Source of the DNA: Kiloniellaceae bacterium
GTDB lineage: Bacteria; Pseudomonadota; Alphaproteobacteria; Kiloniellales; J153
Reading direction: 5' to 3'
DNA: 64,000 nucleotides
Assembly (NCBI GenBank): GCA_021776095.1
Contig: JAJFGO010000098.1
Location: 23,094 to 87,093, forward strand
Position numbers and translations under genes: made by a program. Below are positions 25,920-55,255 of this stretch, one piece after another (within the stretch, counting starts at the first letter, position 1; each line of letters begins with the position of its first letter). The notes beneath the pieces are model-generated. The model worked only from the letters and a program-made list of their open reading frames with translations. It was not told the DNA's origin and ran no database searches.

Positions 25920-28175
25920 ATGACCGGCTGCGACGTGGCATCAAGAGATCACTCGAAGGTCATAAAGGCCGGTAGCAGTCGAATCGCGGAGCGACGTGAT
26001 TCACCAGCCGTAGACCAGGGATCCACCAACCCGGCGGCCAGCCGGCCGGACGACCTTGGTTTGTCGGCGCAGGAGATCGAGCGGCTGAAGAGCCGCTTTC
26101 TTGGTCCGGCGTCCGAGAGAACGCGGACAGACGATCCCTGGCTTCAAACGACCCCTCGGAACCTCGTCACACGGCTTCTCGAGGGTCAGACTGAACTTCT
26201 TAGGCTCAGCAACAAGGGGGGGGGCCGTGAGACACTCCTTGAGCACCTGGCTGACCTGGCGGCGCGCCTTCTGGGGCCAGCCGATTGTTTCATTGAAGTC
26301 ATCGATACCGGTGGCATTGCGCAGTGCCAAGCGATGGCACCGAATACCACTAGGGCCGCGACAGGCGGAACTGATAGTCGGGACAGAGGTCCAGGTGCGG
26401 ATGGATCCGTCGAGCTCGCCGGAGAGGACGGGATTCTCACGTGTTGGTCGCACGGCATTCTGTCATCGGAAGGCAGGCCCCAAGGCACCATAAGGGTCTA
26501 TCGTCGCAAGCCGGGGGAGCCGGAACCGGACGACCAGTGGGTCCTAGATGCCGTGGCCGAGATGGCGCAGTTCGTAATCCAATCCTCGTCGCGCGAGGCG
26601 GCGCTGAATTCGGCGCAGATGCGCTTCGCCTCATTGGCTGAATCTATACCAGGGGTCGTGTACCAACGACGGGTCACACCTGAGGGGGATATCTCTTACC
26701 CCTACATTAGCGAAAGTGCGCAGGACATGTTCGGCGTTACCGCCGAAGAGATCATGACCAATCCACAGGCGCTGTTCGATTGTTTTGGGCCAGAGTATCG
26801 GACAACTTTCCGCGAGCGCCTTCTTTCCGCTTCCCGAAACCTGGAAATGTGGGACGTCGAAGCTCAGATCATCACGGCGAATGGCGAAGAAAAATGGAAC
26901 CATGCCATTGCCCGGCCGCACATGGAAAGCGATGGTTCTGTCCTCTGGGACGGCGTCATCCTTGACGCAACGCGTATAAAACGAGCTGAGTTGGAGCTGC
27001 GCAAGACCAAAGAGGCCGCCGAGGCTGCCAACCGAGTTCAGGCCGAGCTGCTCGAAAAGTTGCGCAGCGCCAATACACGCTTTGCCTCTCTGGCGGCGTC
27101 CATACCCGGGGTCGTGTATCAGCGTCGTGTCACCCTCGAGGGGGATATCGGATATACCTACATCAGCGACGGCGCGCGGGACCTTTTCGGCGCGACGGCC
27201 GAGGAGATCATGGCGAATCCACAGGCGCTGTTCGATCGTCATGGACCGGAATATCGGGATGACTTCCGGGAGCGTCTTCTTACCGCATCTCGCAATCTGG
27301 AAATGTGGGATGTCGAGGCTCAGATCATCACGGCGAATGGCGAGGAGAAATGGACCCACGCGATTGCCCGGCCGCACTTGGAGAGCGACGGTTCTGTCCT
27401 CTGGGACGGGGTCATCCTCGATGCCACGCGCATCAAGCGGGCCGAGTTCGAATTACGCCAAGCCATGGACGCGGCCAACGCTGCGAACCGGGCCAAGTCG
27501 CTCTTCCTCGCCCAAGTCAGTCACGAACTTCGCACGCCCCTTAATGCCGTGATCGGCTTTGCAGGGATGCTCGTGCAGCAGTTTCTTGGCCCGCTGGGAA
27601 ACGACAAGTACGAGGAGTATGCGTGCGACATTGAGAAAAGCGGCCGGCAACTTCTAGATGTGATCAACAATATTCTAGAATTTACAAAAGTTGAGAGCGG
27701 TAGCGTCTCCGGCCAGAAAAGCGCCGTCGACCTGAGGGCGATTTCCGACAAAGCCATCGTTCATTCCGAGGCTATTTCGAAATCGAAAAACATAAGAGTG
27801 CACAACAATATCGGACCCGAAATCTGCCCGGTCATGGGGGACGAAGAAAAGCTTGAATATATTCTTCAAAACCTGGTCTCGAACGCTGTGAAGTTCACCA
27901 ACGATGGCGGCGAGGTACGCATAGAGGGTCGTCAAAATGGAGGTCGAACCGTCGTTATCGATGTTGTCGACACCGGTATCGGAATAGCGGCGGAGGACAT
28001 CCCGAAGGTTTTCGAGCCCTTTACTCAGATCGATTGCGAATTGAGCCGGAAGTACGAAGGGCTCGGTTTGGGGATGCCCTTGGCGGCCGCGATGGCCGAG
28101 ATGCATGGCGGTTCGATTAAGATCGACAGCGAACTCGGGCAGGGCACGAAGGTTAGTCTCTCGCTTCCGAAATAG
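25920..28175 (+). CDS. Cytoplasmic sensor histidine kinase: GAF-like N-domain, two near-identical PAS domains, HisKA, HATPase_c
   Basis: 751 aa with no TM helices. H-box [19 protein letters not shown] and G-boxes DTGIGI and GLGLGMPLA. PAS units start at aa 235 and aa 387. Confidence 0.9.
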   Translation: MTGCDVASRDHSKVIKAGSSRIAERRDSPAVDQGSTNPAASRPDDLGLSAQEIERLKSRFLGPASERTRTDDPWLQTTPRNLVTRLLEGQTELLRLSNKGGGRETLLEHLADLAARLLGPADCFIEVIDTGGIAQCQAMAPNTTRAATGGTDSRDRGPGADGSVELAGEDGILTCWSHGILSSEGRPQGTIRVYRRKPGEPEPDDQWVLDAVAEMAQFVIQSSSREAALNSAQMRFASLAESIPGVVYQRRVTPEGDISYPYISESAQDMFGVTAEEIMTNPQALFDCFGPEYRTTFRERLLSASRNLEMWDVEAQIITANGEEKWNHAIARPHMESDGSVLWDGVILDATRIKRAELELRKTKEAAEAANRVQAELLEKLRSANTRFASLAASIPGVVYQRRVTLEGDIGYTYISDGARDLFGATAEEIMANPQALFDRHGPEYRDDFRERLLTASRNLEMWDVEAQIITANGEEKWTHAIARPHLESDGSVLWDGVILDATRIKRAEFELRQAMDAANAANRAKSLFLAQVSHELRTPLNAVIGFAGMLVQQFLGPLGNDKYEEYACDIEKSGRQLLDVINNILEFTKVESGSVSGQKSAVDLRAISDKAIVHSEAISKSKNIRVHNNIGPEICPVMGDEEKLEYILQNLVSNAVKFTNDGGEVRIEGRQNGGRTVVIDVVDTGIGIAAEDIPKVFEPFTQIDCELSRKYEGLGLGMPLAAAMAEMHGGSIKIDSELGQGTKVSLSLPK
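26622..27490 (+). repeat. Intragenic tandem duplication (456-bp period) of a PAS module plus the start of the DHp helix
   Basis: Unit 1 begins RFASLAESIPGVVYQRRVTPEGDISY and unit 2 begins RFASLAASIPGVVYQRRVTLEGDIGY. Long identical stretches include RNLEMWDVEAQIITANGEEKW and ESDGSVLWDGVILDATRIKRAE. Both units end in ...AANR. Confidence 0.88.
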
Positions 28176-28253: not shown

Positions 28254-29771
28254 CTAACCTGTCTTGTGCGCCACCCGTTTGGCGAGAACCCGTCGGCGCG
28301 GCAAGTAGACAATTGCGTCGGTTCCCCGGCCAGGGGTGCTGTTGAGCTCGAATCGGCCGTCCAGCAGATTGGTCAGAGCCAACACCAATGGCAGCCCAAG
28401 CCCGGTCCCCGCGGTTTCGCGGCTGAACGCACTGGCGATCTGACCGAAGGGTTCTAGTGCCTTGCTCACATCTTCCGGCGCGATACCGATCCCCGTGTCG
28501 CTAACTGTCAGGCGGAGTTCGCCCTCCCCGGTTTTCTCCGCGATTATCTTGACCTTGCTGTTGGCGTCCGAGAATTTCACTGCATTGGAGAGCAAATTCA
28601 AAAGGATCTGTTTCATGGCCCGCTCGTCGGCCCAAAGATCCCCGAGGTCAGGAACGATGGTGCAATCGAACGTGATTCTGGCCGCTTTGGCTCGATCCCG
28701 AATCATGCGCAAACAACTCTTGACGATATCGGCGAGCTCCATCTGATCTTCGTGAAGCTCGAATTTGCCCGACTCGATCTTCGAGAGGTCGAGGATGTCG
28801 TTGATCAAGCTGAGCAGGTGGGTGCCGCTGTAATGGATATCGTAAGCGTAATCTGTGTACTCGTCATTGCCCATTGGCCCCCGGATCTCGTGGGTCATAA
28901 GCTCTGAAAAGCCGATGATCGCGTTGAGCGGCGTGCGCAACTCGTGACTAATGTTGGCTAGGAACTCGGATTTGGCGCGGCTAGCTAGTTCCGCCATTTC
29001 CTTGGCTCTGACCAACATGTCTTCCGACCGTTTTCTCTCGGTCACGTCGAGGCAGACCACAACGAGGCCGTCGTCGTCGGTTCGGTTATAGCGAATTTCG
29101 ATCGCACGCCCATCGTCCCGGATGTATTCTCGGTGCTTTTCTTCGGGCAGGCAGACAAGTTTCAGCGCCTTGACCGCCCGTTCGCTCAACGGGCCCATCT
29201 CGGCCTCGAACTGGCCCGAGAAACCGTCCAAATTCTCGAATCCGTCCTTGATTGCCAACATTTCCAGGAACCGGTCGTTCCATGCGATCAGCCGCATAGA
29301 CCTGTCGAACGCGGCAATTCCGGAGCCCGTGTTGTCGAGCGTCATTTGGAGCAGCATGGAGCGACTCATCGTCGCCTTGCGCGCCGCTGCGGCGCTGACC
29401 GCGTAACGAATGGATCGCTCCAGTAATGGGGCCGTCAGGCTGCTCTTTTCCAGGTAGTCGGCGGCGCCGGCCTCCATCGCGGCTAAATCGATCTCCCGGT
29501 CGCCGAGGCCGGTGAGCAGGATCATGGGTGTCGCACAGCCGGCGGCGACAGCTTCGCGCACCATCTCCACCCCTGTGGTTCCGCCAAAATAGTGGTCGAT
29601 CAAGATGACATCGTAGTACCCGGACTTGAGCCGCTCGAGGCCTGAGTCGTAATCCGGAACCCAATGCAAATTGTACTTGGTGCCCTCAATTTCGCCCAGC
29701 AGTTCGCGAGTCAGAAGATAATCGTCCTCGTCATCTTCGATCAGCAGAACTTGAAGGGTCTTCCCGGACAT
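28254..29771 (-). CDS. Hybrid response regulator-histidine kinase (REC, PAS, HisKA, HATPase_c)
   Basis: 505 aa. REC with the DD pair (IEDDEDD), phospho-acceptor D in VILIDHY and K in AADYLEK. H-box [19 protein letters not shown] and G-box GTGLGLPLV. Confidence 0.9.
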
Positions 29772-29783
29772 GGGCTTTCGTGC

Positions 29784-30248
29784 CTAGGCGACCGCCGCCC
29801 GCGCGGGCGGCAGTTCGACAATCTCGATCCAATAGGCGCCGAGCACTTGAACGACCTTGACAAGGCCCTCGAAGGTCACCGGCTTGGCGATGAACGAGCT
29901 GACCCCCAGCCCGTAGGTGCGTACGATATCTTCCTCGGCCTTCGATGTGGTAAGCACAATCACCGGAATTTGTTGAAACGCTGGGTTGGCCTTGATTTGT
30001 TTGAGCGCCTCGCGGCCGTCCATCTTCGGCATGTTGAGATCGAGCAGGATCATCCCGGGAAAAGGTGCGCGGCCCGCATCGGCGTATTCCCCTTCGCGGT
30101 TCAAATAGGCCAGTAACTGCTCGCCGTCTTCGACAAAGCGAAGATCGTTGGAAAGCCGACTTTCGTCGAAGGCGTCTTGAAGCAACATGCGGTCGTCGGC
30201 GTCGTCCTCGGCGACCAGGATCGTGATTGGTTTGGTATGCCTGCTCAT
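29784..30248 (-). CDS. Single-domain response regulator (Rcp1/CheY-like receiver)
   Basis: 154 aa starting at MSRHTKPITILVAEDDADD. Contains LLDLNMPKMDG, IPVIVLTTS and SFIAKP. The start is placed 2 nt after the upstream kinase stop; the ORF-track start at 30365 overlaps that kinase. Confidence 0.9.
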   Translation of the reverse strand: MSRHTKPITILVAEDDADDRMLLQDAFDESRLSNDLRFVEDGEQLLAYLNREGEYADAGRAPFPGMILLDLNMPKMDGREALKQIKANPAFQQIPVIVLTTSKAEEDIVRTYGLGVSSFIAKPVTFEGLVKVVQVLGAYWIEIVELPPARAAVA

Positions 30249-30250
30249 GT

Positions 30251-32434
30251 CTATGCTTCCTTCACCGTCTGATTCACTGGCAAGACGGCGGTGAACGTCG
30301 TACCTGCACCCAGTTCGCTCTTGGCATAAATTTCGCCGCCGTGCCGTTCGGCGATTTTTCGGCATGTTGCCAGACCGATGCCGGTGCCCTCATACTCAGC
30401 GCGGCCGTGCAAGCGCTGAAAGATGCTGAAGATCTGTTCTGCGTGTTTCATCTTGAAGCCGATCCCGTTATCCGAAACGTTGAGTTGGCAGACATCGCCC
30501 GGAAACGGCGACGCGAGCGATTGACGTCGCACACCCGATAAGACCTGGCTGTGGATCTTGACTATGGGTTGAGCATCTTTCTTGCGGAATTTGAGGGCAT
30601 TGCTGATAAGATTTTGCAACAGCTGGCGCATTTGCGTTTGGTCTGCATCGATCACGGGCAAATCACCGATTTCGACCGTGGCTCCAGAATCTTCGATCTG
30701 GATTTGTAGGTCGGAGACAACCTCCTCGGCGATCTGTTTAAGGGCGCAGGATTCGAAGGGCTGCGCCTTGCTGGTGACCCGGGAGTAGGACAAGAGGTCG
30801 TTGATAAGGTCACGCATGCGTCGTGTAGAGGATTGAATCCGGTTCAGGTAAAGCCCCGCCTCTTCGCCGAGTTCGTCGCTGCACTTGCGCTCCAGCCGGT
30901 CGCCGAAGGCTTCGATCTTGCGCAACGGTTCTTGCAGATCGTGGGACGCAATGGACGCGAAATCCTGCAATTCCTGATTGCTGCGCTCCAGAGCTGCGGC
31001 GCGGTCCTTCAACTCGGTAATGTCGGTGTACACCACAGCCGTGCCGCCATCGGTGGTGCGGTTCTCGTTAGTCAGGACCCAGCGGCCATTCGGCAGGCGC
31101 CATTCCGCTACGTGGTGGCGCGCGCGGTGCGACTCGATCTGACGGTTTAGTTCTTCGTCTGAGTCGGTGCCGTTGGCCTCGGCGCCGAGGCAACTTTCCA
31201 CTGTGGCCCTCGCGATGGTTTCGTAACTCACGCCGGGCTGGATCAAGTCTTTGAGTTCCGGGAAAAGGCCTCGGAAATGACTATTGCAGACCACCAGACG
31301 GTCGTCCTTGTCGTACAGCACCAGCCCTTGGGAAATGCTCTCCAGGATGACTTCTCGGGTTCGCGCCTCGGTCGCGGCGGCCTCGAGTTCCGCTTCCTTG
31401 ATCCGAGTGGCGTCCAGGATCACGCCGTCCCACATGACGGTGCCGTCGGGCTCCTTGTGCGGCCGGGCGATGGCGTGAGTGAATTTTCGCTGACCGTCCC
31501 GGCTGACAATGGTCGCCTCGACATCCCACATTTTCATTGCCCGGGTGGCCTCAAGCAGCCGGTCACGAAAGGTTTCGCGGTATTGTGCGCCGTGGCAGTC
31601 GAACAGGGCGTTGGGATCGGCTAGGATTTCTTGGGGAGCAACACCGAACATGTCCATCACGCCGTCGCTGATGTAGGTGTAGCGGATTTGACCGGCTGGC
31701 GTGACCATGCGCTGGTAAACGACGCCTGGGATGTTCGCGGCGAGGGATGCGAAGCGTTGGTCGGCGGAGCGCAATGCCTCGGCCCAGCCATCATGTTCTA
31801 TGGCGAAACGGGCGAGATCGGCGAGCGAGGCCAGGATACGTTTGTCGCCGAGCCCCGGCACGCGTGGCGTGCGGAAATAGACCGCCAGCACCCCCACGGG
31901 CGTGCCCATACGGCCCAGGATGGGATGGGCCCAACAGGACGTCAAACCATAGGATAAAGCAGTATTGGGGGACTGGGCCTCGGAAGGATGGCTCGAGGTC
32001 AGGGTTTCCGGCAAATAAATCGGCTTGCCCGTGGCCGCCGACAAGGTGCTGGGCGAGGACATTTCCACCGTGCCGGCCTGATCGACGGCCTGCAGATATC
32101 CCGGCGGAAAGTTCGGCGCGGCAGCATGGACCAGTTGTTTACTCTCGGGGTCCATCACCTGCACCGAACATATCGCTTGTTCAATAACTTGTTCGGCGAG
32201 ATTCGCAATGCGTGTGAGGGTTTCCTTGAGCGTCGCGCGCGTGGAAATCAGGCTGAGGACCTCGGTCTGCCCATGGAGCAGGGTGAGCAGGCGCTCCCGC
32301 TCCGCGGCGTCCATTTCCAAGGAAGAGCCCGTGGGCAGGGCCGCCGGCCCAACGCCATGTGGGGCCGATGCATCTCGTTGTGAATCCGCGCTCTGCTCTG
32401 TGGCGAGCACAGCCTCGTTTGGATTTGGCGTCAT
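30251..32434 (-). CDS. Cytoplasmic sensor histidine kinase: GAF, PAS (the shared module), second PAS, phytochrome-type HisKA, HATPase_c
   Basis: 727 aa. H-box FASIASHDLQEPLRKI and G-box GTGIGLATCRK. The PAS module at about 31380-31756 (RFASLAANIPGVVYQRMVTPAGQIRYTYISDG...WDGVILDATRIKEAELE) is homologous to both PAS units of the 25920 kinase. Confidence 0.9.
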   Translation of the reverse strand: MTPNPNEAVLATEQSADSQRDASAPHGVGPAALPTGSSLEMDAAERERLLTLLHGQTEVLSLISTRATLKETLTRIANLAEQVIEQAICSVQVMDPESKQLVHAAAPNFPPGYLQAVDQAGTVEMSSPSTLSAATGKPIYLPETLTSSHPSEAQSPNTALSYGLTSCWAHPILGRMGTPVGVLAVYFRTPRVPGLGDKRILASLADLARFAIEHDGWAEALRSADQRFASLAANIPGVVYQRMVTPAGQIRYTYISDGVMDMFGVAPQEILADPNALFDCHGAQYRETFRDRLLEATRAMKMWDVEATIVSRDGQRKFTHAIARPHKEPDGTVMWDGVILDATRIKEAELEAAATEARTREVILESISQGLVLYDKDDRLVVCNSHFRGLFPELKDLIQPGVSYETIARATVESCLGAEANGTDSDEELNRQIESHRARHHVAEWRLPNGRWVLTNENRTTDGGTAVVYTDITELKDRAAALERSNQELQDFASIASHDLQEPLRKIEAFGDRLERKCSDELGEEAGLYLNRIQSSTRRMRDLINDLLSYSRVTSKAQPFESCALKQIAEEVVSDLQIQIEDSGATVEIGDLPVIDADQTQMRQLLQNLISNALKFRKKDAQPIVKIHSQVLSGVRRQSLASPFPGDVCQLNVSDNGIGFKMKHAEQIFSIFQRLHGRAEYEGTGIGLATCRKIAERHGGEIYAKSELGAGTTFTAVLPVNQTVKEA

Positions 32435-32833
32435 GACACCTCAACCAATGCGTAACGCTAGTCCGTCGGGACAGACCGGGCCGTTGCAACTCAAACAGTT
32501 TGTGCAATTTCCGGTTTAAAAAGCATTAATGATTAGTGGTAAGTAAAAAAGTTTAGAGACTTTTAAAAACTGTTAGTTAATTTACTTCTATAATAATAGT
32601 TGCTTACCGATTTTTAACCGCTGCCTTAGACAATCCCTTCACCATCATTCGGCTTCTACCAGCATGGAGTGTGTATCCGGATGCCTTCGCAAGCAGCTGA
32701 AACGAATGCCCCGGCGTCCCAGGCCGGCGTAGAGGGAGTTCCTGTTGGCCCGGACTGCCGTCCGCTCCGCCAAGCGCGCCGGACGGGGCGGCTGGAACAA
32801 CTCGAGTCCCAAGTTAGCCAGTTGCTGGAGCGA

Positions 32834-33928
32834 ATGAACATTGCGGTCATTTACGGCGGGGATAAGTCTGTCGAGGGCGCAGTCATCAATCAGACCCAGA
32901 ACCCTCGCTCGTGGAAGAGTTACCAGGCCGTCGCCCAAGACATCGCGGATGCCCTAATACGGCTGGGCGCCAAAAGCGTGAGTCTGATGCCGGACGATAT
33001 GACGCTCGGCGATCGCTTGCGTCAGGACAATATTCATTTTGCCTGGCTGAACACCGGCGGCGTACAGGGTTACGATTCCATGTCCCATTGCGCCGCCATG
33101 CTCGAGATGATCGGCATTCCCTATGTTGGCCATCATCCGCTTACCGCCGGCATCTTGGACAACAAGCACACCTTCAAGCGCCAGTTGAACGCGCTGAGAA
33201 TTCCGACCGCCGACTTCATGACCTGGCATGAATTGCGCGACGAGCACGATTTCGTAAACGGTCGGCAGTTCAAGGAGGTCTTCGCGGACTACCCGGGCCC
33301 CTACGTTGTAAAGCCGGTCTGCGGTCGTGCCTCCCTGCACGTCAATATTGTAGATACGACTGCAGAATTGATGGATTGCGTGGCGGAGGTTTACCAGGCG
33401 ACCGAGAACCACGTTCTGATCGAAAAGTTTCTGCCGGGCAAGGAATACACCGTCGCTGTTTGCGGATCGATCATAGCCCAGGGAAAGAATCTGATTCAGT
33501 TGAAGGAGCCGCTCGTGTTCTCGCCGATCGAGCGTGTCCTTTTGCCGGACGAGAAGATCTTCACCTCCATGGACCTGCGCCCGATCACCAAGGACCGTTT
33601 GCGTCTGCTAGGATCGGACAGCGACCCGGATGTCTACGAAAAGTTAGTGGAGATCGCGCAAGAAGTTTTCACGCAAATGGATCTTGAGACGCTGATACGT
33701 CTAGACCTGAGGATGGATGTGGACGGCAGGTTCAACGTTCTCGAGGCCAATCCGAAACCGGACCTGAAGCGCCCCACTGGCGACAAGACCAGCATCGTGT
33801 GCGCGGGTTTGCAAGCCGTGGGCATGGACTATGACGATCTAATCTTTTCCCTGCTGGTCGATCAAATCGATTTTCTGTTTTGTCAACGTCGCGGGACGGT
33901 AACCACCCTCTCGGCCCTTTTGGATTGA
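32834..33928 (+). CDS. D-alanine--D-alanine ligase-like ATP-grasp enzyme
   Basis: Ddl-type N-domain (MNIAVIYGGDKS...), central DNKHTFKRQL and YVVKPVCGRASLHV, and C-terminal RLDLRMDVDGRFNVLEANPKP. The ORF is open from 32669, so up to 55 extra N-terminal residues are possible. Confidence 0.85.
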   Translation: MNIAVIYGGDKSVEGAVINQTQNPRSWKSYQAVAQDIADALIRLGAKSVSLMPDDMTLGDRLRQDNIHFAWLNTGGVQGYDSMSHCAAMLEMIGIPYVGHHPLTAGILDNKHTFKRQLNALRIPTADFMTWHELRDEHDFVNGRQFKEVFADYPGPYVVKPVCGRASLHVNIVDTTAELMDCVAEVYQATENHVLIEKFLPGKEYTVAVCGSIIAQGKNLIQLKEPLVFSPIERVLLPDEKIFTSMDLRPITKDRLRLLGSDSDPDVYEKLVEIAQEVFTQMDLETLIRLDLRMDVDGRFNVLEANPKPDLKRPTGDKTSIVCAGLQAVGMDYDDLIFSLLVDQIDFLFCQRRGTVTTLSALLD

Positions 33929-33945
33929 GTGCGGCACGCGGCGGA

Positions 33946-36360
33946 ATGTCAGGACCAGAAAGAATGCGTAAGGTTAGCAAAATCAGAAGGGCCATTTTCA
34001 ACGCGGTGACGATGACCTTCGTCGCCGGCTTGTCCCTGCTACTTTTGCTTTACGTTGGCCACGGCGAGGCCACGCGCACCTATCAGCAGTTCCAGGTCGA
34101 GAAGTTGGCTGCGCAAGGCCAAATCATTCAAAAGTCGATGGATACCTTCTTGCGTGGCGGCTATCCAGTTCGGCAGTTCGTCGGATTCACCACCATGGTC
34201 TCGCCGATCCTAGAGTCCGACCATACGATCGCCGCCATGACCGTGTTCGACCAGTCCGGTCGCTTGGTTTCCGCCGGCGGGGACGACTCGATACCTCTAT
34301 TGGCAAAATCGACCAGCATGAACGCCGACTCTTCGCTCATGGCAGACCTTCGCGAAGATGAACGGTATCTTCAGGTCGTTCTGCCGCTGCGCAACCGTTT
34401 CGAGCAGGTTGGCAGTCTTGCTATCAGCATGCCAAAGGCGGTCATCGTCGAGCGTATCGAGGCGAGTTTTCTGCCGCTGCTCATCGTCGTTGCCGCCTCG
34501 GCGGTCGGGTTCGGTCTTTTCGTCGGCATTGGGGCCCCCTTGCTCACGGGCAAGCGGCGGCGTTGGCTGCAGTATACCTACGCGCTGACCTTCCTGGGCG
34601 CCTCCGCCTTGGTCATTGCGACCCTCATCTCGCTGTATTCGGAAGGGGCGCAGATCAAGACCAAGGCCTTGGCCGATTCTCTTGGCCAACGCTTGACCAG
34701 CATTGTGCAGTTCGGCCTCAACATCACCGAGATTCAAGGCTTGGACCAAGTCCTCGGCGATTATCAACGTCTCAATCCGGACATCAGCGCCGCCGGTTTG
34801 ACCGTCGACCGGATTGTCACCATACATACCGACGAAGCGGCCGTCGGCAAGCCGTGGACAAGCGACGGGGGCAATTACGAATACATCGTCAATCTGACCC
34901 GTCCCGGCGGCCGAGACATCCGGATTGCCGTGGCCATGCCGGCGGACATCGTGTTTCGCCAGGTCTTGCGCAGCGTCAAGAATTTCGCGGCCTTGTTCGT
35001 GGCGTCCGCTTTCGTGGCGGGCGTCTTCCTTCAACTCGCTGGATCGGTGCGGCGCGTGCGCGCGGACGACGATTCTGCCGCTGACCCCTTGGCGCCGACA
35101 CCGGACGCTGAGGAAGCCGATTTGAAGCTAGTCAAACCGGTCTTCTTCATTGCTGTCGTGGCGGAACACCTGACATATGCGTTTCTGCCGCAGTTCATGT
35201 ATAGGGTCACCGAAAGTTCGGGTCTACCCGAAGGGTCGGCTTCGGCCTTGTTCGTAACCTATTATCTGTTCTTTGCGTTGAGCCTGGTGCCGGCAGGTCA
35301 TTTCGCTCAGCACTTTAGCCCACGCCCACTCATGTACGTCGGTATGTCCTTTGCCGCGTTGGGGCTTGGGCTTCTGTCCGTTTATCCTGACTTCTACGTG
35401 GTGCTGGGCGCCCGCGCCTTATCGGGCATTGGCCAAGGCATGCTCTTCATTGGGGTTCAGTCCTACATTTTGGCGACGGCTGCAGAAAACCGAAGAACTC
35501 AAGGTGCATCGATCATCGTTTTTGGTTTCCAAGGCGGCATGATCTCCGGCATGGCGATCGGCTCGCTATTGGTGACGCAGATGGGCCCGGAGGGGGTCTT
35601 TGCGTTGGCCGGCGGGATTGCCGTTTTCATGGCGCTCTATACTCTTGTCGTAGTGCCGAACGTCTCGACTCGGGCCTTAGTAGAGTCCCAGGGCGGTGCG
35701 TCCTTGCGCGTGCTGTTTAGGGATCTGATTCGGGCTATGCGAAGCTTCGAGTTTCTCCGCACCATGTTTCTGATCGGTGTGCCAGCCAAGGCTGTAATGA
35801 CCGGTGTGATCATATTTGCCCTGCCAGTTCTCATGACCAAGGCGCAATACGTTCAGGAGGACATTGGCCAGGTTCTTATGGTCTACGCCGGCGCCGTAGT
35901 GCTGGCGAGCGGCTATGCCTCACGCTCCGTCGACCGGACGGGACGAACCGATCAGGCGTTGTTCTTTGGGTCGATCGTCAGCGGCGCCGGTCTGGTCCTA
36001 ATCGGGGTGACGGGATGGGCGCCGCTCGCTAATCAGGCCAGCAACACCAACCTTCTGACGGTGTTGCTGATCGCAGGCGTCGCCATTGTTGGCATCGCCC
36101 ATGGTTTTATCAACGCGCCCGTGGTGACCCATGTGGCGAATTCCGAGCTTTCCGCAATAACCGGCGAATCTGCGGCGACCGCAGCCTACCGGTTCCTGGA
36201 GCGCCTGGGCCACGTCGCCGGGCCAATCATCGTCGGTCAGCTTTTTCTCTTCGGCGGGCAGGATCCGATGGTGATTGCCTGGATCGGGGGAGGGGTCGCC
36301 GTCCTGGGCGTCCTGTTCCTGATAAAGCCCACACCCACGCAGGTCAGTTACGAGCGTTAG
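33946..36360 (+). CDS. MFS-type permease with an N-terminal extension of about 400 aa containing two TM-bracketed extracytoplasmic sensor-like (Cache/PDC-like) domains
   Basis: The topology read from hydrophobic segments is TM, about 135 aa, TM-TM, about 130 aa, TM, then an acidic linker. An MFS-like core of about 400 aa follows (LTYAFLPQF..., ALSGIGQGMLFIGVQSYI...). Start at 33946 or 33964; the ORF-track start at 33880 overlaps the ATP-grasp gene. Confidence 0.78.
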   Translation: MSGPERMRKVSKIRRAIFNAVTMTFVAGLSLLLLLYVGHGEATRTYQQFQVEKLAAQGQIIQKSMDTFLRGGYPVRQFVGFTTMVSPILESDHTIAAMTVFDQSGRLVSAGGDDSIPLLAKSTSMNADSSLMADLREDERYLQVVLPLRNRFEQVGSLAISMPKAVIVERIEASFLPLLIVVAASAVGFGLFVGIGAPLLTGKRRRWLQYTYALTFLGASALVIATLISLYSEGAQIKTKALADSLGQRLTSIVQFGLNITEIQGLDQVLGDYQRLNPDISAAGLTVDRIVTIHTDEAAVGKPWTSDGGNYEYIVNLTRPGGRDIRIAVAMPADIVFRQVLRSVKNFAALFVASAFVAGVFLQLAGSVRRVRADDDSAADPLAPTPDAEEADLKLVKPVFFIAVVAEHLTYAFLPQFMYRVTESSGLPEGSASALFVTYYLFFALSLVPAGHFAQHFSPRPLMYVGMSFAALGLGLLSVYPDFYVVLGARALSGIGQGMLFIGVQSYILATAAENRRTQGASIIVFGFQGGMISGMAIGSLLVTQMGPEGVFALAGGIAVFMALYTLVVVPNVSTRALVESQGGASLRVLFRDLIRAMRSFEFLRTMFLIGVPAKAVMTGVIIFALPVLMTKAQYVQEDIGQVLMVYAGAVVLASGYASRSVDRTGRTDQALFFGSIVSGAGLVLIGVTGWAPLANQASNTNLLTVLLIAGVAIVGIAHGFINAPVVTHVANSELSAITGESAATAAYRFLERLGHVAGPIIVGQLFLFGGQDPMVIAWIGGGVAVLGVLFLIKPTPTQVSYER

Positions 36361-36369
36361 GAGTTTCCG

Positions 36370-37578
36370 ATGATCAGAATATTTTCGATACGGCGTTTTG
36401 CAGGGTTGATAGCGGCAGCGGCGGCCTTTGTGTTTGTGTCCCTAGCGGTGCCGAATTCAGTTCTTGCCAAGGCCGATTTTTCCAGCTGGTTCCGCTATGG
36501 CGAAGACGTTGAGAAGGCTTGGCGGGTCGAAGCGGTGGACGGCGATCCCAATCAGGTGCGGATCAGCACGCAAAAAAGTAATCCGTCCGGACCCAAGCGC
36601 AAGATCATGGTGGTATATCCGCGCCCGTCGTCTGCCTACGATGTGGCGATCACGAAAATTCTCGCTATCTTCGCCGAAAAAGACATTAACGCGGACATTA
36701 CCGTGGTCAATTTCCTGAAGGAAGACAAGCGCGGTAAGGCCCTGATCAAGCGCGCCGAGAAAGAAGGCTACGAGTTGATGTTCTCCATGGGCTCGGAATC
36801 GACCGATTGGCTCTTTCGGAATTATGGTGGCGGCAAGGTGCCTGTGGTCTCCGTCTGCTCCAAGGATCCGGTCATGCTAGGCCAGGCTAGTGCCTACGAT
36901 CAAGGCACTGGAACGAACTTCGCTTTCACCTCTTTGAATATGCCTGTCGACGTACAAATGGCCTATGTGGTTGATTTCATGCCGCAGGTTAAAAACTTCG
37001 CCATCCTGGTGGACAGCAAGAACGTCAGCGCGGTCGAGACCCAGGCGAAACCCATCGCCGAATACGCCCGGCAGCGCGGCATCCAGGTTCACGAGCTGGC
37101 GGTGAATAACCCGAAGAAGGCCAAGGACGAGTTAAGCGAGTTGGTCAAGTCGGCGGTCGCTACCATGCGCAAGAGCGACCCGACCTTGAGCAACAGCCTG
37201 TTCTGGATCACAGGCAGCACTGCGGTCTTTCGGGAGATCGCCACCATCAACGCCCATTCGGACCGCGTTCCGGTGCTCAGCGTGGTGCCTGAAGTGGTCA
37301 AGGCCGGCGACAATAGTTCCGTCATGTCCATCGGAATCAGCTTCGAAAGCAATGCCCATCTTGCGGCGATCTATGGTGCGGACGTGCTCGCGGGCCGCAA
37401 TCCGGGCGAAATCCCGGTCGGCATCGTGTCCCCGCCCGATATCGCCATTAATTTCCGCAAAGCGCGGGAGATCGGGCTGGAGATACCCTTCAAGTTTCTC
37501 GAGAGCGCGACCTACGTCTATGGCTATGACGGCCAGGTCGTGCGCAACTCGAGGCCGTCGGTGCAATCCGTCAACTAA
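36370..37578 (+). CDS. Periplasmic ABC_sub_bind (PF04392-like, BMP-related) substrate-binding protein, with no cognate ABC permease or ATPase nearby
   Basis: 402 aa. Signal peptide ending VLAKA and AGGAG ahead of the ATG. Family-like blocks KIMVVYPRPSSAYD, VPVVSVCSKDP, NFAILVDSKN and PPDIAINFRKAREIGLEIP. The family assignment rests on recollection of the pattern only. Confidence 0.75.
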   Translation: MIRIFSIRRFAGLIAAAAAFVFVSLAVPNSVLAKADFSSWFRYGEDVEKAWRVEAVDGDPNQVRISTQKSNPSGPKRKIMVVYPRPSSAYDVAITKILAIFAEKDINADITVVNFLKEDKRGKALIKRAEKEGYELMFSMGSESTDWLFRNYGGGKVPVVSVCSKDPVMLGQASAYDQGTGTNFAFTSLNMPVDVQMAYVVDFMPQVKNFAILVDSKNVSAVETQAKPIAEYARQRGIQVHELAVNNPKKAKDELSELVKSAVATMRKSDPTLSNSLFWITGSTAVFREIATINAHSDRVPVLSVVPEVVKAGDNSSVMSIGISFESNAHLAAIYGADVLAGRNPGEIPVGIVSPPDIAINFRKAREIGLEIPFKFLESATYVYGYDGQVVRNSRPSVQSVN

Positions 37579-37872
37579 GGCACCTTAGGATAGCCATCGG
37601 GTCTCGATCTTCAAGAATCGGGTTCCGGAACTTTGAGCCGGCCCTTCGGGAAAATCCCGCGGGGCCGGTTCTCGTTGTGCTCAGATTTCATTTGACTGCA
37701 ACAAACCAGTAACGCTCCAATCCTCAGTTCGCGAAGGGACGATGTTTCCTGACCTGCCGGGTCCCGGCGGGCTTGTGAAATGCGTCTTGGCCCTGCTAAA
37801 TCAGGTTGGCTTTCCGGCGTCCCGAAGGGCGGCGCAGGACGCGTTGAAATGGGTGTGGGATTGGGAAACGAA

Positions 37873-38736
37873 ATGATGCGGTATGAAGCTCCGGAATCCA
37901 CTAAAGCGGCGGTCAAGCTGCTAGCCGGATCCAGGGACCGGGCGCGGATCCTGGCGGGCGGGACCGACTTGCTGGTCCAAATGCGCTCCGGCATGCCCGA
38001 GCCGGCCCTGGTGATCGACATCAAGCACATCGCTGCCATGGGCGCGATTAAGCGGGAAGCGGGCGGTTTCCGGATCGGTGCGGCGGTGCCCAGCGCCGAA
38101 TTGGGAGAACACGCCGGGCTGGTCAAGGCTTGGCCCGGCGTGGTCGAGGCGGCGGGCTTGATCGGTTCGACCCAAATTCAGGGCCGGGCGACTATCGTGG
38201 GTAACCTGTGCAATGGCTCGCCGGCGGCCGATAGCGTGCCGGCCATGATGGTCGCCGGGGCGCGGGCCCGCATTGCCGGACCCGGCAGGCGACGGGACTT
38301 GCCAGTTGAGAAGGTGGTGGTTGGGCCGGGCAAAACCGCGCTCAAGAGGGGCGAACTGATCGAATCGATCTTTCTGCCCAAGCGCCCGGCGCGCTCCGGC
38401 GACGCCTATCTGCGTTTCATCCCGCGCACCGAGATGGATATTGCGGCAGCCAGTGCCGGTGTTTTCCTGACCCTCGATCGCAAGGGCATTTGTACCGATG
38501 CCCGGGTCGCCATCGGCGCGGTCGGGCCGCGGGCTATTCTGGTCAAACCGGCGGCCAAGGCCCTGATCGGCACGCCGCTTGACGAGGCGGCTCTGACCCA
38601 ACTTGCGGCCGCCTGTTCCGCCGCCGCGCGGCCGATCGACGACAAACGCGGCACCAAGGAATTCAGAACCCACGTGGTCGGCGTCCTGGCGCGCCGCGCC
38701 GCCGTGATCGCGCTCAAGCGGGCAAAAGGTGAATGA
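37873..38736 (+). CDS. Molybdenum hydroxylase FAD-binding medium subunit (CoxM/XdhB-like)
   Basis: MMRYEAPESTKAAVKLL...ILAGGTDLLVQMRSG is typical of FAD_binding_5, with a CO-dehydrogenase flavoprotein C-domain. The start is moved from 37780 to 37873. Confidence 0.88.
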   Translation: MMRYEAPESTKAAVKLLAGSRDRARILAGGTDLLVQMRSGMPEPALVIDIKHIAAMGAIKREAGGFRIGAAVPSAELGEHAGLVKAWPGVVEAAGLIGSTQIQGRATIVGNLCNGSPAADSVPAMMVAGARARIAGPGRRRDLPVEKVVVGPGKTALKRGELIESIFLPKRPARSGDAYLRFIPRTEMDIAAASAGVFLTLDRKGICTDARVAIGAVGPRAILVKPAAKALIGTPLDEAALTQLAAACSAAARPIDDKRGTKEFRTHVVGVLARRAAVIALKRAKGE

Positions 38737-39212
38737 TGTCTCAGATTCCTGTAACAACGACGATCAACGGCGACGCGACCGAATTCCTGTGCGAGGCCGA
38801 CGAAACTTTGCTCGACGTACTGCGCGACCGGCTTGAGTTGAGCGGCACCAAGGAAGGTTGCGGCACCGGCGATTGCGGCGCCTGCTCGGTTATGCTCGAC
38901 GGCCGGCTGGTTTGCTCGTGTCTGGTCTTGGGCGCGGAGGCGGAGGGCCGGGAGGTCGAAACCATCGAGGGTATGGCCGAGGGCGATACCCTCCATCCCC
39001 TGCAAAAGAAGTTTCTGGAACACGCCGCCTTGCAATGCGGCGTCTGCACCCCGGGTTTTCTGATCGCTGCGAAGGCCCTGCTGGAAACCAACCTCGATCC
39101 GACTGAAACCGAGGTCCGCTATTGGCTGGCCGGCAATCTGTGCCGCTGCACCGGCTATGACAAGATCGTGCGCGCCGTGCTGGACACGGCCGCCGAGATG
39201 AGGAGCGCGTAA
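38733..39212 (+). CDS. Molybdenum hydroxylase [2Fe-2S] small subunit (CoxS-like)
   Basis: 159 aa. Cluster motifs CGTGDCGACSV and CGVCTPG...CRCTGY. ATGA overlap with the upstream gene. Confidence 0.93.
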   Translation: MMSQIPVTTTINGDATEFLCEADETLLDVLRDRLELSGTKEGCGTGDCGACSVMLDGRLVCSCLVLGAEAEGREVETIEGMAEGDTLHPLQKKFLEHAALQCGVCTPGFLIAAKALLETNLDPTETEVRYWLAGNLCRCTGYDKIVRAVLDTAAEMRSA

Positions 39213-39215
39213 GCT

Positions 39216-43266: not shown

Positions 43267-43324
43267 GGCGGCAGGTTAACACCGGCGCGCAGGATCGGAA
43301 AAATAGGCAGCAAAGGGGATGCCT

Positions 43325-44245
43325 TTACGCCTTGGGGGCGGCGATGGGGCCGTAGTTCTCCGGCTGGCGGTGCAGGGCGAAATTGAAGATATTGTCCTTG
43401 ATCTCGCGGCAACGGTCCAGATCGCAATCGTGGACGATCACTTCGTCGGCCAGGGTTTGACACTCGGCGACGATTTCGCCGGTCGGGGCGATGATGCAGG
43501 TGCCGCCGATCAAATCGCAGCCTTCTTCCAGGCCAGCCTTGGCGACCCCAACCACCCAGGTCCCGTTTTGGTAGGCTCCGGCCTGCATGACCAGATGGTT
43601 GTGGAAATCCTGCAAGTGGTCGTGCTCGGGCGCCGACGGATAGTGCTGCGGCGTGTTGTAGCCCAGCATCACCATCTCGGCCTTGCGCAGCCCGAGCACG
43701 CGAAAGGTCTCCGGCCAGCGCCGATCGTTGCAGATACACATGCCCATGGTTCCGCCGAAGGCCGGGAACACGGGAAAGCCCAGGTCGCCCGGCTCGAAGT
43801 AGCGCTTTTCCAGGTGCTGGAACGGCCGCCAGGGTTCGGGCTCCGAATGACCAGGCAGATGCACCTTGCGGTATTTGCCCACAATGGCGCCGGTGCCGTC
43901 GACCAGGATCGCGGTATTGAAATGGCGGTCGCCGCCTGCCGTTCGGATCCGCTCGGCATAACCCAGGCAGAAACCGACGCCCAGACCGGCGGCGGCGTCG
44001 AACAGCGACCGGGTCTCGGGCCCGGGCATTTCGGTCTCGAAGAAGCTGTCGATGTCGGCCTGATCCTCGAAATACCAACGCGGGAAAAACGTCGTCAGGG
44101 CCAGTTCTGGAAAGACCACCAACTTCGCGCCCTGATCCGCTGCCTGGCGCAGCAGTGCGATCAGGCGCGCGACCGCCGAAGTGCGCGGTTCATCCCGCGC
44201 GATCGGGCCCAACTGGGCGGCGGCGACCCTCAAATCCCGCGCCAT
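43325..44245 (-). CDS. N-carbamoyl-D-amino-acid hydrolase (D-carbamoylase, nitrilase superfamily)
   Basis: 306 aa. It is very similar along its whole length to my recollection of the Agrobacterium D-carbamoylase. Shared motifs are VFPELALTTFFPRW (Glu), GKYRKVHLPGH (Lys), CICNDRRWPE (Cys) and HRQPENYG. Confidence 0.9.
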   Translation of the reverse strand: MARDLRVAAAQLGPIARDEPRTSAVARLIALLRQAADQGAKLVVFPELALTTFFPRWYFEDQADIDSFFETEMPGPETRSLFDAAAGLGVGFCLGYAERIRTAGGDRHFNTAILVDGTGAIVGKYRKVHLPGHSEPEPWRPFQHLEKRYFEPGDLGFPVFPAFGGTMGMCICNDRRWPETFRVLGLRKAEMVMLGYNTPQHYPSAPEHDHLQDFHNHLVMQAGAYQNGTWVVGVAKAGLEEGCDLIGGTCIIAPTGEIVAECQTLADEVIVHDCDLDRCREIKDNIFNFALHRQPENYGPIAAPKA

Positions 44246-44248
44246 GGC

Positions 44249-45508: not shown

Positions 45509-45544
45509 GAGTGAACCGATGCAAGATTGTGACACGAGCCGAAC

Positions 45545-50464: not shown

Positions 50465-50611
50465 TCAATGAAGGATTGTCGAATATGCTTAACGTCGTGC
50501 CTTCAAGGCGGGCTGGACCCGCCGCCAAGGAACCATGGCGCCGGAATTATAAAGGCCGAAATCGAACGGCTGAAATCGACATAACAAGATCGACACCACA
50601 TGGAGGTTTGG

Positions 50612-51808: not shown

Positions 51809-51831
51809 TCTTACCTCCCTGTCCGACGACT

Positions 51832-51868
51832 GGGGCTCAGAGTCGAAGCTCTGAGCCCCATTTTTCTT
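51832..51868 (+). terminator. Intrinsic terminator/attenuator between the binding-protein gene and the permease genes
   Basis: GGGGCTCAGAG-TCGAAG-CTCTGAGCCCC has a perfect 11-bp stem and is followed by ATTTTTCTT. Confidence 0.65.
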
Positions 51869-51882
51869 GAGAAGCAAATTCA

Positions 51883-52752: not shown

Positions 52753-52756
52753 TGCC

Positions 52757-54518: not shown

Positions 54519-54521
54519 ACC

Positions 54522-55250: not shown

Positions 55251-55255
55251 GAGTT

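Follow-up and report, generated by a model that had tools for sequence, protein, structure and literature searches.

Secondary transport that depends on a periplasmic binding protein is known for the TRAP (DctPQM) and TTT (TctABC) systems, and we know of no binding-protein-dependent transporter of the major facilitator superfamily (MFS). Members of this superfamily do occur beside ATP-grasp enzymes, since dipeptide antibiotic loci pair an L-amino-acid ligase with an MFS exporter, as in the case of BacD and BacE for bacilysin and of TabS for tabtoxin. TAXI-GltS was recently proposed as a binding-protein-dependent secondary transporter on the genomic evidence of co-localization, translational coupling and fusion proteins, and the association of binding proteins with elevator-type secondary transporters was described as an “emerging theme” (PMC12344293). 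The phrase “binding protein” is absent from a 2021 review of the MFS.

The locus described here lies in the window, the whole stretch of 64,000 nucleotides from a Kiloniellaceae bacterium that we analyzed. Three plus-strand genes at 32681-37578 encode a Ddl-family ATP-grasp ligase, an MFS permease and a PF04392 binding protein, and they diverge from three genes for soluble signaling proteins, a GAF-PAS kinase, a receiver and a receiver-kinase. Coordinates and Pfam domain content confirm the plus-strand trio and divergent kinase operon of the original prediction, with two corrections, one to the start of the ligase gene and one, given below, to the architecture of the permease. The ligase gene had been thought to start at 32834, but the segment encoded 5' of this position (RRTGRLEQLESQV...) is conserved in homologues of ~405-416 aa, which moves the start to the ATG at 32681, and the identical 415-aa protein has already been called in public data. 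The divergent control region, previously drawn as 32435-32833 (230-400 bp), therefore ends at 32680 and is 246 bp long (32435..32680). This region is AT-rich, with a minimum 100-nt GC content of 22% against 59% locus-wide, and a similar trough is found again in most related loci. It contains GTTAA at 32576-32580 and TTAAC at 32614-32618, the top-enriched pentamer of its composition when 42 such control regions were compared. Promoter-like sites are no more frequent in it than expected by chance, and an Rfam search of 32435-32680 gave no match.

The ligase (32681..33928, plus strand, 415 aa) has a conserved N-terminal extension of ~50 aa and, by hydropathy, no transmembrane (TM) segment, as expected of a soluble enzyme. 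It matches PF07478 (Dala_Dala_lig_C) with 61.8 bits against a cutoff of 24 and is, judging from its sequence, a member of the ATP-grasp superfamily that is predicted to be catalytically intact. The equivalents of the ATP- and Mg-binding residues K144, R255, D257, E270 and N272 of DdlB are all present, and these positions (K211, R340, D342, E355 and N357) are invariant across the family alignment. Glu15, Ser150, Lys215 and Tyr216 of E. coli DdlB are D-Ala-binding or omega-loop residues. At the position equivalent to Glu15 the family has E, D or P; HMMER alignment to 4zqi and 1iow, in which the loop alignment is uncertain, places Ala at S150, Val at K215 and Leu at Y216; and the N272-G276 loop of DdlB reads NPKPD in the ligase. 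The only sequence matches in the PDB are Ddl structures (E ~1e-13 to 1e-20), with the L-amino-acid ligase structure 3vot very weak in the profile search (E 4e-4), and the protein falls far under the cutoffs of all NCBIfam/TIGRFAM equivalog Ddl models (94.6 bits against 243 for NF002378, the best NCBIfam Ddl model, and 77.3 against 245.65 for TIGR01205). The gene lists of the related loci that we examined contain no mur or fts genes. On the basis of the sub-cutoff scores, the loss of D-Ala-binding residues and the non-housekeeping context, we rejected the assignment of this enzyme as a D-Ala-D-Ala ligase (EC 6.3.2.4), as anticipated when the locus was first read. The ligase thus resembles DdlB and VanA-type enzymes in its Ddl-subgroup fold and conserved ATP/Mg residues, and VanA also in that its gene adjoins genes of the two-component type, but it differs from them in its sub-cutoff scores, in its N-terminal extension and in the lack of mur/fts or vanH/vanX neighbors. 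The locus likewise shares with those of BacD/BacE and TabS an ATP-grasp ligase encoded beside an MFS permease, whereas it carries no further pathway genes and its permease has a sensor module and a binding-protein partner.

The permease (33946..36360, plus strand, 804 aa) consists of a 4-TM module followed by a 12-TM MFS domain; public gene calls begin at the ATG at 33964 and give 798 aa, while we use the ATG at 33946. It belongs to the MFS, matching PF07690 (MFS_1) with 114 bits against a cutoff of 33.4 over residues 422-753 of the 826-aa open reading frame. The first ~400 residues match no Pfam model, Cache models included. Hydropathy analysis places TM segments in this part at residues ~17-35, 175-193, 212-230 and 347-365, ahead of the MFS helices, and the AlphaFold2 (AF2) model (pLDDT 79, pTM 0.75) has a 12-TM bundle in the MFS part. 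Between TM1 and TM2 the model predicts a periplasmic domain (residues ~45-165; 34078..34440, plus strand) of one helix and a five-stranded sheet, and between TM3 and TM4 another (residues ~235-335; 34648..34950, plus strand) with the same pattern of secondary structure; similarity in sequence between the two halves of the module is not significant (E 0.11). The top Foldseek match of the first domain is 9a5d, a model of WalK bound to its accessory protein YycH (E 2e-8), and the further matches include erWalK (7dud, TMt 0.62), YycG (5is1, TMt 0.56) and dCache ligand-binding domains. According to these models both domains are of the Cache/PDC sensor type, at the level of fold only. The “400-aa double sensor-like ectodomain” of the original prediction is therefore sensor-like by Foldseek, but AF2 and hydropathy resolve it into a module of four TM helices that carries two distinct alpha/beta domains in the periplasm. 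Its TM-Cache-TM layout and fold, and the presence of a separate periplasmic partner protein, recall WalK with YycH/YycI and LuxQ with LuxP. Unlike in WalK and LuxQ, however, the output is an MFS permease rather than a kinase, each chain has two units, and the cognate kinases are soluble proteins.

Foldseek matches of the MFS part include MdfA, VMAT, NorA and PepT, and the best of them are exporters of the DHA1 type (MdfA, NorA and VMAT), with target-normalized TM-scores of ~0.8 against MdfA, VMAT2 and NorA. A profile search of the PDB returned mixed relatives (YajR, sialin/VGLUT and NorA). Antiporter motif C, G-x3-G-P-x2-G-G, lies in TM5 of DHA1 drug:H+ antiporters; TM5 of the permease reads G-F-Q-G-G-M-I-S-G-M in the family alignment, which retains the glycine spacing and lacks the proline and the second glycine. 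Many polar or charged residues in or near the predicted MFS helices are invariant (E407, H408, R749, E752, R753 and H756), and such strong conservation is expected of an active transporter.

The binding-protein gene (36370..37578, plus strand) begins 9 nt past the stop codon of the permease and encodes a secreted 402-aa protein with a signal peptide, an N-terminal extension of ~45 aa and, by hydropathy, a single N-terminal hydrophobic segment. It matches PF04392 with 50.4 bits against a cutoff of 25.9 and scores 59 bits against the TrpX model, whose cutoff is 390. Its relatives in the PDB are CD0873, VC_1101 and SP1069 (6hni, 3lkv and 3lft), and the three structurally solved PF04392 proteins are binding proteins of ABC importers that hold aromatic amino acids. 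To these (TrpX/SP1069, CD0873 and VC_1101) the protein is related remotely, through family and fold class, but it differs from the ABC-importer proteins of PF04392 in its N-terminal extra segment, its constant pairing with an MFS permease and the lack of adjacent ABC genes. No ABC permease or ATPase is encoded within ~14 kb of the trio in the window, the nearest ABC system being of the LivHMGF type at 51883-55250, and the gene lists of the related loci examined contain no ABC-transporter genes beside the trio; the proposal that the binding protein lacks an ABC partner therefore holds for the neighborhood. Among the three proteins it is the most conserved, exceeding the permease in all 66 of the 66 loci.

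A pattern-based scan of 185,579 species genomes found the permease at 121 places, and our locus counts refer to 80 species-representative genomes, mostly of Alphaproteobacteria. The ligase gene lies immediately upstream of the permease gene on the same strand in 67 of 73 loci and the binding-protein gene immediately downstream in 74 of 76. The flanking genes vary from locus to locus while the order of the trio is fixed, and adjacency at this frequency with differing flanks indicates an association far beyond chance. The view of the trio as a self-contained module that is syntenic in related genomes is thereby upheld, and we conclude that the three genes are co-inherited in a fixed order and very probably constitute a conserved functional unit. 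The ligase is not an obligatory companion, as the permease/binding-protein pair occurs without it in loci L025, L075, L069 and L084, and some paralogues or distant relatives lack it or have a different enzyme. Thus, a sulfotransferase gene overlaps the permease gene in L091, and the partners in L084 and L092 are an HMGL-like synthase and a P-loop protein. An outer-membrane efflux protein is encoded downstream in L093, and TauD and amidohydrolase genes are found near some relatives. Neither a catabolic pathway nor a transcription factor is encoded with the cassette, and their absence would be unusual in a locus for nutrient uptake. We found no published description of the cassette in the literature that we searched, in keeping with the earlier statement that no described system of this composition was known, and it is apparently undescribed.

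Several natural variants bear on the relation between binding protein and permease. In proteins P0363 and P0382, which come from lower-GC metagenome contigs, the module and MFS domain are followed by a TM segment and a PF04392 domain, so that the binding protein forms the C-terminus of the permease; the window's binding protein is 40% identical to that of P0363 over 383 aa (E 2e-97). P0340 and P0355, from other such contigs, have the converse order, with a PhnD-type binding protein and a TM segment at the N-terminus, ahead of the module and MFS domain. From our reading of the sequences, membrane topology is consistent in both types of fusion, and two unrelated families of binding protein, PF04392 and PhnD-type, are thus used with this permease. 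Where the genes are separate, their junctions are short: against the 9-nt gap in the window, the genes of L003 overlap by 4 nt and those of L093 are 2 nt apart. The fusions and the tight or overlapping junctions argue for physical coupling, and we consider it likely that the binding protein and the permease are physically coupled. The module itself varies too. It is duplicated in tandem in P0241 and P0250, an FHA phosphopeptide-binding domain is inserted in the central MFS loop of P0318, and in P0281 the same module is joined to HisKA-HATPase in place of the MFS domain. P0281 is a single protein from a 2.5-kb metagenome contig that has no full-length relatives and may be a chimera.

Like TRAP, TTT and TAXI-GltS, the cassette places a periplasmic binding protein beside a secondary transporter, the two being co-localized, translationally coupled and in some species fused, which are the genomic hallmarks of binding-protein-dependent transporters. 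It also reproduces the tripartite layout of TRAP and TTT, in which a binding protein is combined with two membrane parts, a small one of 4 TM segments and a large one of 12. However, whereas DctM, TctA and GltS are of the elevator type, the core of the cassette is a predicted rocker-switch MFS domain; its 4-TM part bears two large Cache-like periplasmic domains, unlike that of TRAP or TTT; and its binding protein is of the PF04392 family (PhnD-type in fusions) rather than DctP, TAXI or TctC. We considered and rejected membership of the cassette in TRAP or TTT, as the permease matches MFS_1 only and the binding protein PF04392. The likeness is one of layout and logic, not of homology.

The divergent genes on the minus strand encode a soluble 727-aa histidine kinase (30251..32434; GAF_2-PAS_3-PAS_7-HisKA-HATPase), a 154-aa single-domain receiver (29784..30248; Response_reg) and a soluble 505-aa receiver-kinase (28254..29771; Response_reg-PAS_7-HisKA-HATPase). 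Convergent with the last is a plus-strand gene for a soluble 751-aa PAS-PAS histidine kinase (25920..28175), which may be the cassette's seventh member. In L014-L016, L021 and L034 the kinase in the ligase-divergent position shares 48-57% identity with the 751-aa kinase and is nearer to it than to the GAF kinase. Three of L014-L016 and L021 are labeled Inquilinaceae. Across the 80 related loci a kinase occupies the ligase-divergent position in 42 and adjoins the cassette in 55, the single-domain receiver is present in 27 (median identity 69%), and L002 and L003 have the same gene order around the receiver-kinase as the window. A dCache cyclase takes the place of the kinase in some other loci. 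In L085 it directly follows the ligase, and in L080, L082, L087 and L093 the gene after that for the binding protein encodes a dCache protein. Signaling proteins are therefore conserved neighbors, as had been suspected from the window. Hydropathy analysis finds no TM segment in the window's kinases, which rules out classical transmembrane signaling to them from the permease ectodomains. We rejected a classical two-component system, as the sole stand-alone regulator is a bare receiver without a DNA-binding output domain; together the proteins resemble a relay of several kinases with its output located elsewhere.

How these parts work together can be read in several ways. The automatic annotations, “D-alanyl-alanine synthetase”, “MFS transporter” and “ABC substrate-binding protein”, suggest a housekeeping ligase, a generic pump for drug efflux and an isolated ABC binding protein that are neighbors by chance. 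We judge this highly improbable in view of the conserved order and strand of the trio amid differing flanks, the natural fusions, the sub-cutoff Ddl scores and non-conserved D-Ala-binding and omega-loop residues of the ligase, the absence of mur/fts genes from the lists examined, and the rarity of the permease when Ddl is near-universal. The reading that we tentatively prefer is that the cassette carries out binding-protein-dependent uptake through the MFS permease, followed by ATP-dependent ligation, with the resulting pool read by the neighboring signaling proteins. A small polar solute, probably amino-acid-like, would be captured in the periplasm by the binding protein, which would dock on the Cache-like module and pass the solute on to the MFS domain, where uptake would be coupled to ions, in an arrangement that would parallel TRAP and TTT on a different core. 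In the cytoplasm, the ligase would join the solute to a partner via an acyl-phosphate intermediate, and this ligation could either trap the solute or yield a species to which the relay of GAF-PAS kinase, receiver and receiver-kinase responds. Lineages with a dCache cyclase in place of the kinase could instead read the pool in the periplasm. Inward transport combined with trapping by the ligase is, in our estimation, conceivable rather than probable. The TauD and amidohydrolase genes near some relatives are typical of uptake loci and support this reading, as do the fusions, the two binding-protein families and the tight junctions, which match the kinds of evidence advanced for TAXI-GltS (PMC12344293). 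Further support comes from the synteny of the trio, the stronger conservation of the binding protein relative to the permease, the ABC-importer relatives that hold aromatic amino acids, the fold match of the module to WalK and dCache sensors and the intact catalytic residues of the ligase. On the other hand, an MFS precedent is lacking, no catabolic genes accompany the cassette, the partner enzymes are mostly biosynthetic (ligase, sulfotransferase and HMGL-like synthase), which fits synthesis followed by export, and the DHA1-type exporters among the structural matches and the outer-membrane efflux gene of L093 also count against uptake.

These latter observations fit the original proposal of a cassette that makes, exports and senses its own signal, which we regard as somewhat unlikely but as a strong rival. 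In such a cassette the ligase would convert common metabolites in a single step into a small amide or a dipeptide-like compound, which the MFS domain would export; the binding protein and Cache-like module would read its external level and use it for feedback gating of the exporter or relay it, with kinases or dCache cyclases as transducers. LuxP-LuxQ and TorT-TorS are precedents for the docking of a binding protein on a sensor-type periplasmic domain, and the constant neighbors of the cassette, among them the dCache genes, are signaling and not catabolic genes. To our knowledge, however, wherever a binding protein has been fused or translationally coupled to a transporter, it has so far served import. 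In addition, the permease and binding protein also occur without the ligase, the kinases have no membrane or periplasmic part through which an external signal could reach them directly, and motif C appears non-canonical in our reading of the alignment. The new evidence favors binding-protein-dependent uptake at least as strongly as it does this make-export-sense cycle. It is improbable, in our view, that the binding protein and double Cache-like module act mainly as a ligand sensor, with transport of the ligand secondary or absent. The sensor would then turn MFS activity on and off, or the MFS domain would transmit conformational changes to the soluble kinases, much as the MFS sensor UhpC does to UhpB. 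The WalK-like layout of the module, its tandem duplication, the FHA domain of P0318, the coupling to HisKA-HATPase in P0281 and the persistent signaling neighbors all suit such a transceptor, but P0281 may be a chimera, the MFS domain is conserved as in an active transporter, and the ligase is left unexplained.

If binding-protein-dependent uptake is correct, the permease would represent one more class of binding-protein-dependent secondary transport, with a mechanism of its own, after TRAP, TTT and TAXI-GltS. It may be the first such transporter to be built on an MFS core, with the Cache-like 4-TM module as a docking platform for different families of binding protein and with coupling to a cytoplasmic modifying enzyme and signaling proteins, although we advance this claim with caution. 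A binding protein that is coupled genetically, and sometimes covalently, to an MFS permease would carry this principle over to the largest superfamily of transporters and to another mechanism of transport. The carriers are mostly little-studied marine and soil Alphaproteobacteria; they include Desertibaculum subflavum and Pelagibius sp. Alg239-R121, whose genomes are not labeled as metagenome-assembled, and experiments therefore look feasible. The cassette unites parts that are seldom combined, a transporter-fused sensor module, a one-step ATP-grasp ligase and a variable signaling partner in the form of soluble kinases or a dCache cyclase, and in either direction of transport it would constitute a compact, testable system for small-molecule handling that is linked to signaling.

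Three genes on the plus strand, first predicted from the sequence and borne out by an ORF listing and Pfam scans, make up the cassette: an ATP-grasp ligase of the Dala_Dala_lig_C type (32681-33928; PF07478, 61.8 bits), a long MFS permease whose match is confined to its C-terminal half (33946-36360; PF07690, 114 bits) and a binding protein (36370-37578; PF04392, 50.4 bits). Pfam assigns the three divergent minus-strand genes to a GAF-PAS-PAS-HisKA-HATPase kinase, a receiver domain alone and a receiver-PAS-HisKA-HATPase protein, and the gene for the last is convergent with one for a PAS-PAS kinase (25920-28175). In a hydropathy scan the binding protein had a single N-terminal signal-like segment, and no membrane segment was found in the three kinases, the receiver or the ligase. 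A scan of one genome per species across 185,579 species located 121 places that encode a permease relative, and the neighbors at the best 80 of these 121 were counted by tblastn of the window's proteins. The trio proved syntenic in related genomes, with the ligase gene directly upstream on the same strand in 67 of the 73 loci with enough sequence and the binding protein gene directly downstream in 74 of 76. The flanking genes differ among the window and two related loci, L002 and L003, and the cassette is therefore a conserved unit. Within it the binding protein is better conserved than the permease (66 of 66 loci).

Most of the 80 records are labelled Alphaproteobacteria or groups within, including Kiloniellales, Rhodospirillales, Inquilinaceae, Stellaceae, Geminicoccaceae, Xanthobacteraceae and Hyphomicrobiales; two of them, Desertibaculum subflavum and Pelagibius sp. 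Alg239-R121, carry no MAG label. Three loci (L009, L012 and L023) belong to MAGs whose labels read Flavobacteriales, Verrucomicrobiia and Anaerolineae, and their cassettes resemble similarly ranked alphaproteobacterial loci; these contigs have probably been misbinned. Several MAGs hold two permease/binding-protein pairs (L024/L025, L027/L075 and L062/L067). The second copy has no ligase match in L025, where a 968-aa GAF-PAS kinase lies directly upstream of the pair instead, or in L075, and the upstream region of L067 is absent as the contig ends.

The permease was modeled with AF2 from 15 homologues (pLDDT 79, pTM 0.75), and a second model covered its first 396 residues. The predicted chain runs from TM1 through a periplasmic domain of helices and five strands to TM2 and a short cytoplasmic turn, and then through TM3, a second periplasmic domain with the same pattern, TM4 and a disordered linker to a 12-helix MFS bundle. 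Foldseek places the N-terminal module closest to a WalK-YycH model (E 2e-8), with further matches to WalK/YycG extracellular domains (target TM-scores 0.56-0.62) and to the dCache ligand-binding domains of chemoreceptors. The model order and these matches therefore bear out the double sensor-like ectodomain of the original prediction, as two tandem TM-Cache-TM units. The halves are alike in structure only, internal duplication at the sequence level not being significant (E 0.11), and no Pfam model detects the module. When 1.84 billion representative proteins were searched with the module in HMMER, 357 relatives came up at E <= 0.001; of the 150 listed, the majority are, like this architecture, about 800 aa long, and MFS_1 follows the module in 9 of 10 relatives tested with Pfam.

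In Foldseek comparisons the MFS part is closest to MdfA, VMAT, NorA and PepT. Subfamily membership did not serve to assign a direction of transport, the fold and profile matches being a mixture of DHA1 exporters, SLC17-type organic-anion transporters and YajR. Polar or charged residues are invariant at six places in the MFS half (E407, H408, R749, E752, R753 and H756), and profiles match it weakly to SLC17-type organic-anion carriers; taken together, these observations suggest that the transported solute is polar and charged.

The more remote relatives, which lie on metagenome contigs with a GC content of 42-50%, show how the parts can be joined and exchanged. In P0241, P0250, P0251 and P0258, permeases of about 1,170-1,200 aa encoded at L087, L088 and L093, two tandem 4-TM double-Cache modules precede the MFS domain, so that one chain holds four periplasmic Cache-like domains; the ligase is still found upstream and the PF04392 protein downstream, and in L087 and L093 a dCache protein follows. 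In the natural fusions P0363 and P0382 the module and MFS domain are followed by one more TM helix and by a PF04392 domain, which is 40% identical to the window's binding protein (E 2e-97) over an alignment that covers the N-terminal extension. In P0340 and P0355 a PhnD-type binding protein is fused ahead of the module. The fixed adjacency, the tight or overlapping junctions, the two independent kinds of fusion and the recruitment of two unrelated binding-protein families lead us to conclude that permease and binding protein work together.

The partner enzyme and the signaling proteins are more variable. An ATP-grasp ligase is the partner in most loci. Among fusion-type relatives it is replaced by a sulfotransferase, with a gene that overlaps the stop codon of the permease (L091, 9001-13844), or by an HMGL-like (homocitrate-synthase-like) protein together with an AAA_18 P-loop protein (L084, 2971-8391; L092, 3135-8513). 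At L090 the partner is a TauD dioxygenase; its gene and a PF04392 gene both adjoin that of P0318 (681-3503), a permease relative whose central cytoplasmic MFS loop contains an inserted FHA (phosphothreonine-binding) domain. Signaling partners include soluble kinases, dCache cyclases, a dCache-HAMP-SpoIIE phosphatase and hybrid kinases. Across the 80 loci a related kinase is divergent upstream in 42, directly downstream in 13 and elsewhere in the flank in 5, and a single-domain receiver is present in 27; in two kinase-free alphaproteobacterial loci (L080 and L082) the gene after that of the binding protein encodes a dCache adenylate/guanylate cyclase. In P0281, a singleton encoded on a contig of 2.5 kb, a histidine kinase is attached to the module; a dedicated search gave no second case, and we treat the protein as weak evidence that the module serves as input to a kinase, not as proof of it.

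The ligase is not the housekeeping Ddl, an identity that the original prediction had set against its own reading and that is ruled out by its scores against the Ddl models, by its active-site residues and by its genomic context and rarity. Against the best NCBIfam Ddl model it scores 94.6 bits, below the 243-bit cutoff, and its PDB matches are Ddl structures only, all weak (E about 1e-13 for the sequence alone, 7e-20 for the family profile). The ATP/Mg residues of DdlB (K144, R255, D257, E270 and N272) are all kept. The D-Ala-site residues are changed: an invariant Ala stands at DdlB S150 throughout the family, the omega-loop residues K215 and Y216 are matched to Val and Leu in an uncertain stretch of the alignment, and NPKPD occupies the N272-G276 loop. 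Because the ATP/Mg residues are kept and S150, K215 and Y216 are changed, the enzyme is, on its sequence, a Ddl-subgroup ATP-grasp ligase that is competent for catalysis and has a different substrate pair.

Two further routes to the ligand were tried. PF04392 proteins of known structure hold aromatic amino acids, and the window's binding protein is just remotely related to them; published text on the related structures gives too few residue details for a ligand to be transferred from the pocket residues. A riboswitch that could name the ligand was sought in the 5' region, with zero Rfam matches even at E = 1.

The AT-rich divergent region described in the original prediction is real and its extent, 32435-32833, is not. 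The ligase start had been placed at 32834, the identical protein on record is 415 aa long from the ATG at 32681, and the segment from 32681 to 32834 is kept among ligase homologues. Because the ligase begins at this ATG, the control region is 246 bp (32435-32680). Its GC content falls to a trough of 22%, versus 59% for the locus, and a similar AT-rich trough is found again in most related divergent regions. The pentamer GTTAA/TTAAC occurs 135 times in 39 of 42 related divergent kinase/ligase regions (for example L005, L014 and L020), compared with 35 +/- 6 expected from dinucleotide-preserving shuffles, 69 for the runner-up of the same composition and a mean of 39 (standard deviation 17) for the 80 pentamers of that composition. 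These sites, two of which lie in the window (32576-32580 and 32614-32618), may be candidate binding sites of a regulator. No longer consensus emerged around GTTAA in these regions, the CtrA-type TTAA-N7-TTAA arrangement is rare (6 of 42), and counts of sigma-70 promoters and terminators were no higher than in shuffled sequence.

Several other features of the window deserve mention. Directly downstream of the cassette, at 37780-41480, is a set of molybdenum hydroxylase genes of CoxM/CoxS/CoxL-like type, with FAD_binding_5, a 2Fe-2S subunit and a large subunit of 754 aa; it is missing at the equivalent place in L002 and L003 and is therefore not counted as part of it. Genes for a LivHMGF-type ABC importer (BPD_transp_2 permeases and ATPases, two of each) and, after them, an Asp/Glu/hydantoin racemase occupy 51883-55963, at a distance of about 14 kb from the gene of the orphan binding protein, and no such importer was found beside the cassette in the related loci examined. 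Upstream of the kinase block, at 22407-25631, a biotin carboxylase gene precedes CT_A_B-type genes (allophanate-hydrolase or 5-oxoprolinase-like subunits). Long ORFs of 731 aa (43319-45514) and 480 aa (50489-51931) have no Pfam match at E <= 1e-5, and a tRNA gene at 264-337 is the sole Rfam match at gathering threshold across the whole window.

What the unit does can be read in three ways. In the original prediction the ligase makes a small molecule, the MFS domain exports it, and the ectodomains and binding protein sense it. The biosynthetic type of the partner enzymes favors this, as do an MFS fold closest to exporters, a cassette without accompanying catabolic genes or a transcription factor, a ligase linked directly to a dCache cyclase in one lineage and an outer-membrane efflux protein gene downstream in L093; we nevertheless consider it somewhat unlikely. 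That the binding protein and Cache module act as a sensor, either gating the permease or using it to signal, seems to us distinctly improbable. Evidence of the kinds that couple binding protein to permease here also served to propose TAXI-GltS as a new binding-protein-dependent secondary transporter (PMC12344293), and on that basis we prefer, tentatively, binding-protein-dependent MFS uptake followed by ligation. The cassette shares the layout of 4 TM, 12 TM and binding protein with TRAP and TTT transporters, but its core is an MFS domain instead. The full-text literature searched, incomplete in coverage and including a 2021 MFS review and the 2025 TAXI-GltS paper (PMC12344293), described no binding-protein-coupled MFS transporter and, as predicted, no account of a system of this composition. 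All of its parts belong to known families, and the cassette is thus not categorically new.

For uptake followed by ligation, we envision a scenario in which the binding protein would capture a periplasmic solute and dock on the Cache-like module; the solute would then enter through the MFS domain and be coupled by the ATP-grasp ligase to a partner in the cytoplasm. The resulting pool could be read by the soluble GAF-PAS relay or, in other lineages, by a periplasm-facing dCache cyclase. Much firmer than any of the three functional readings is the conclusion that these genes form one unit in which the binding protein and the permease are physically coupled.
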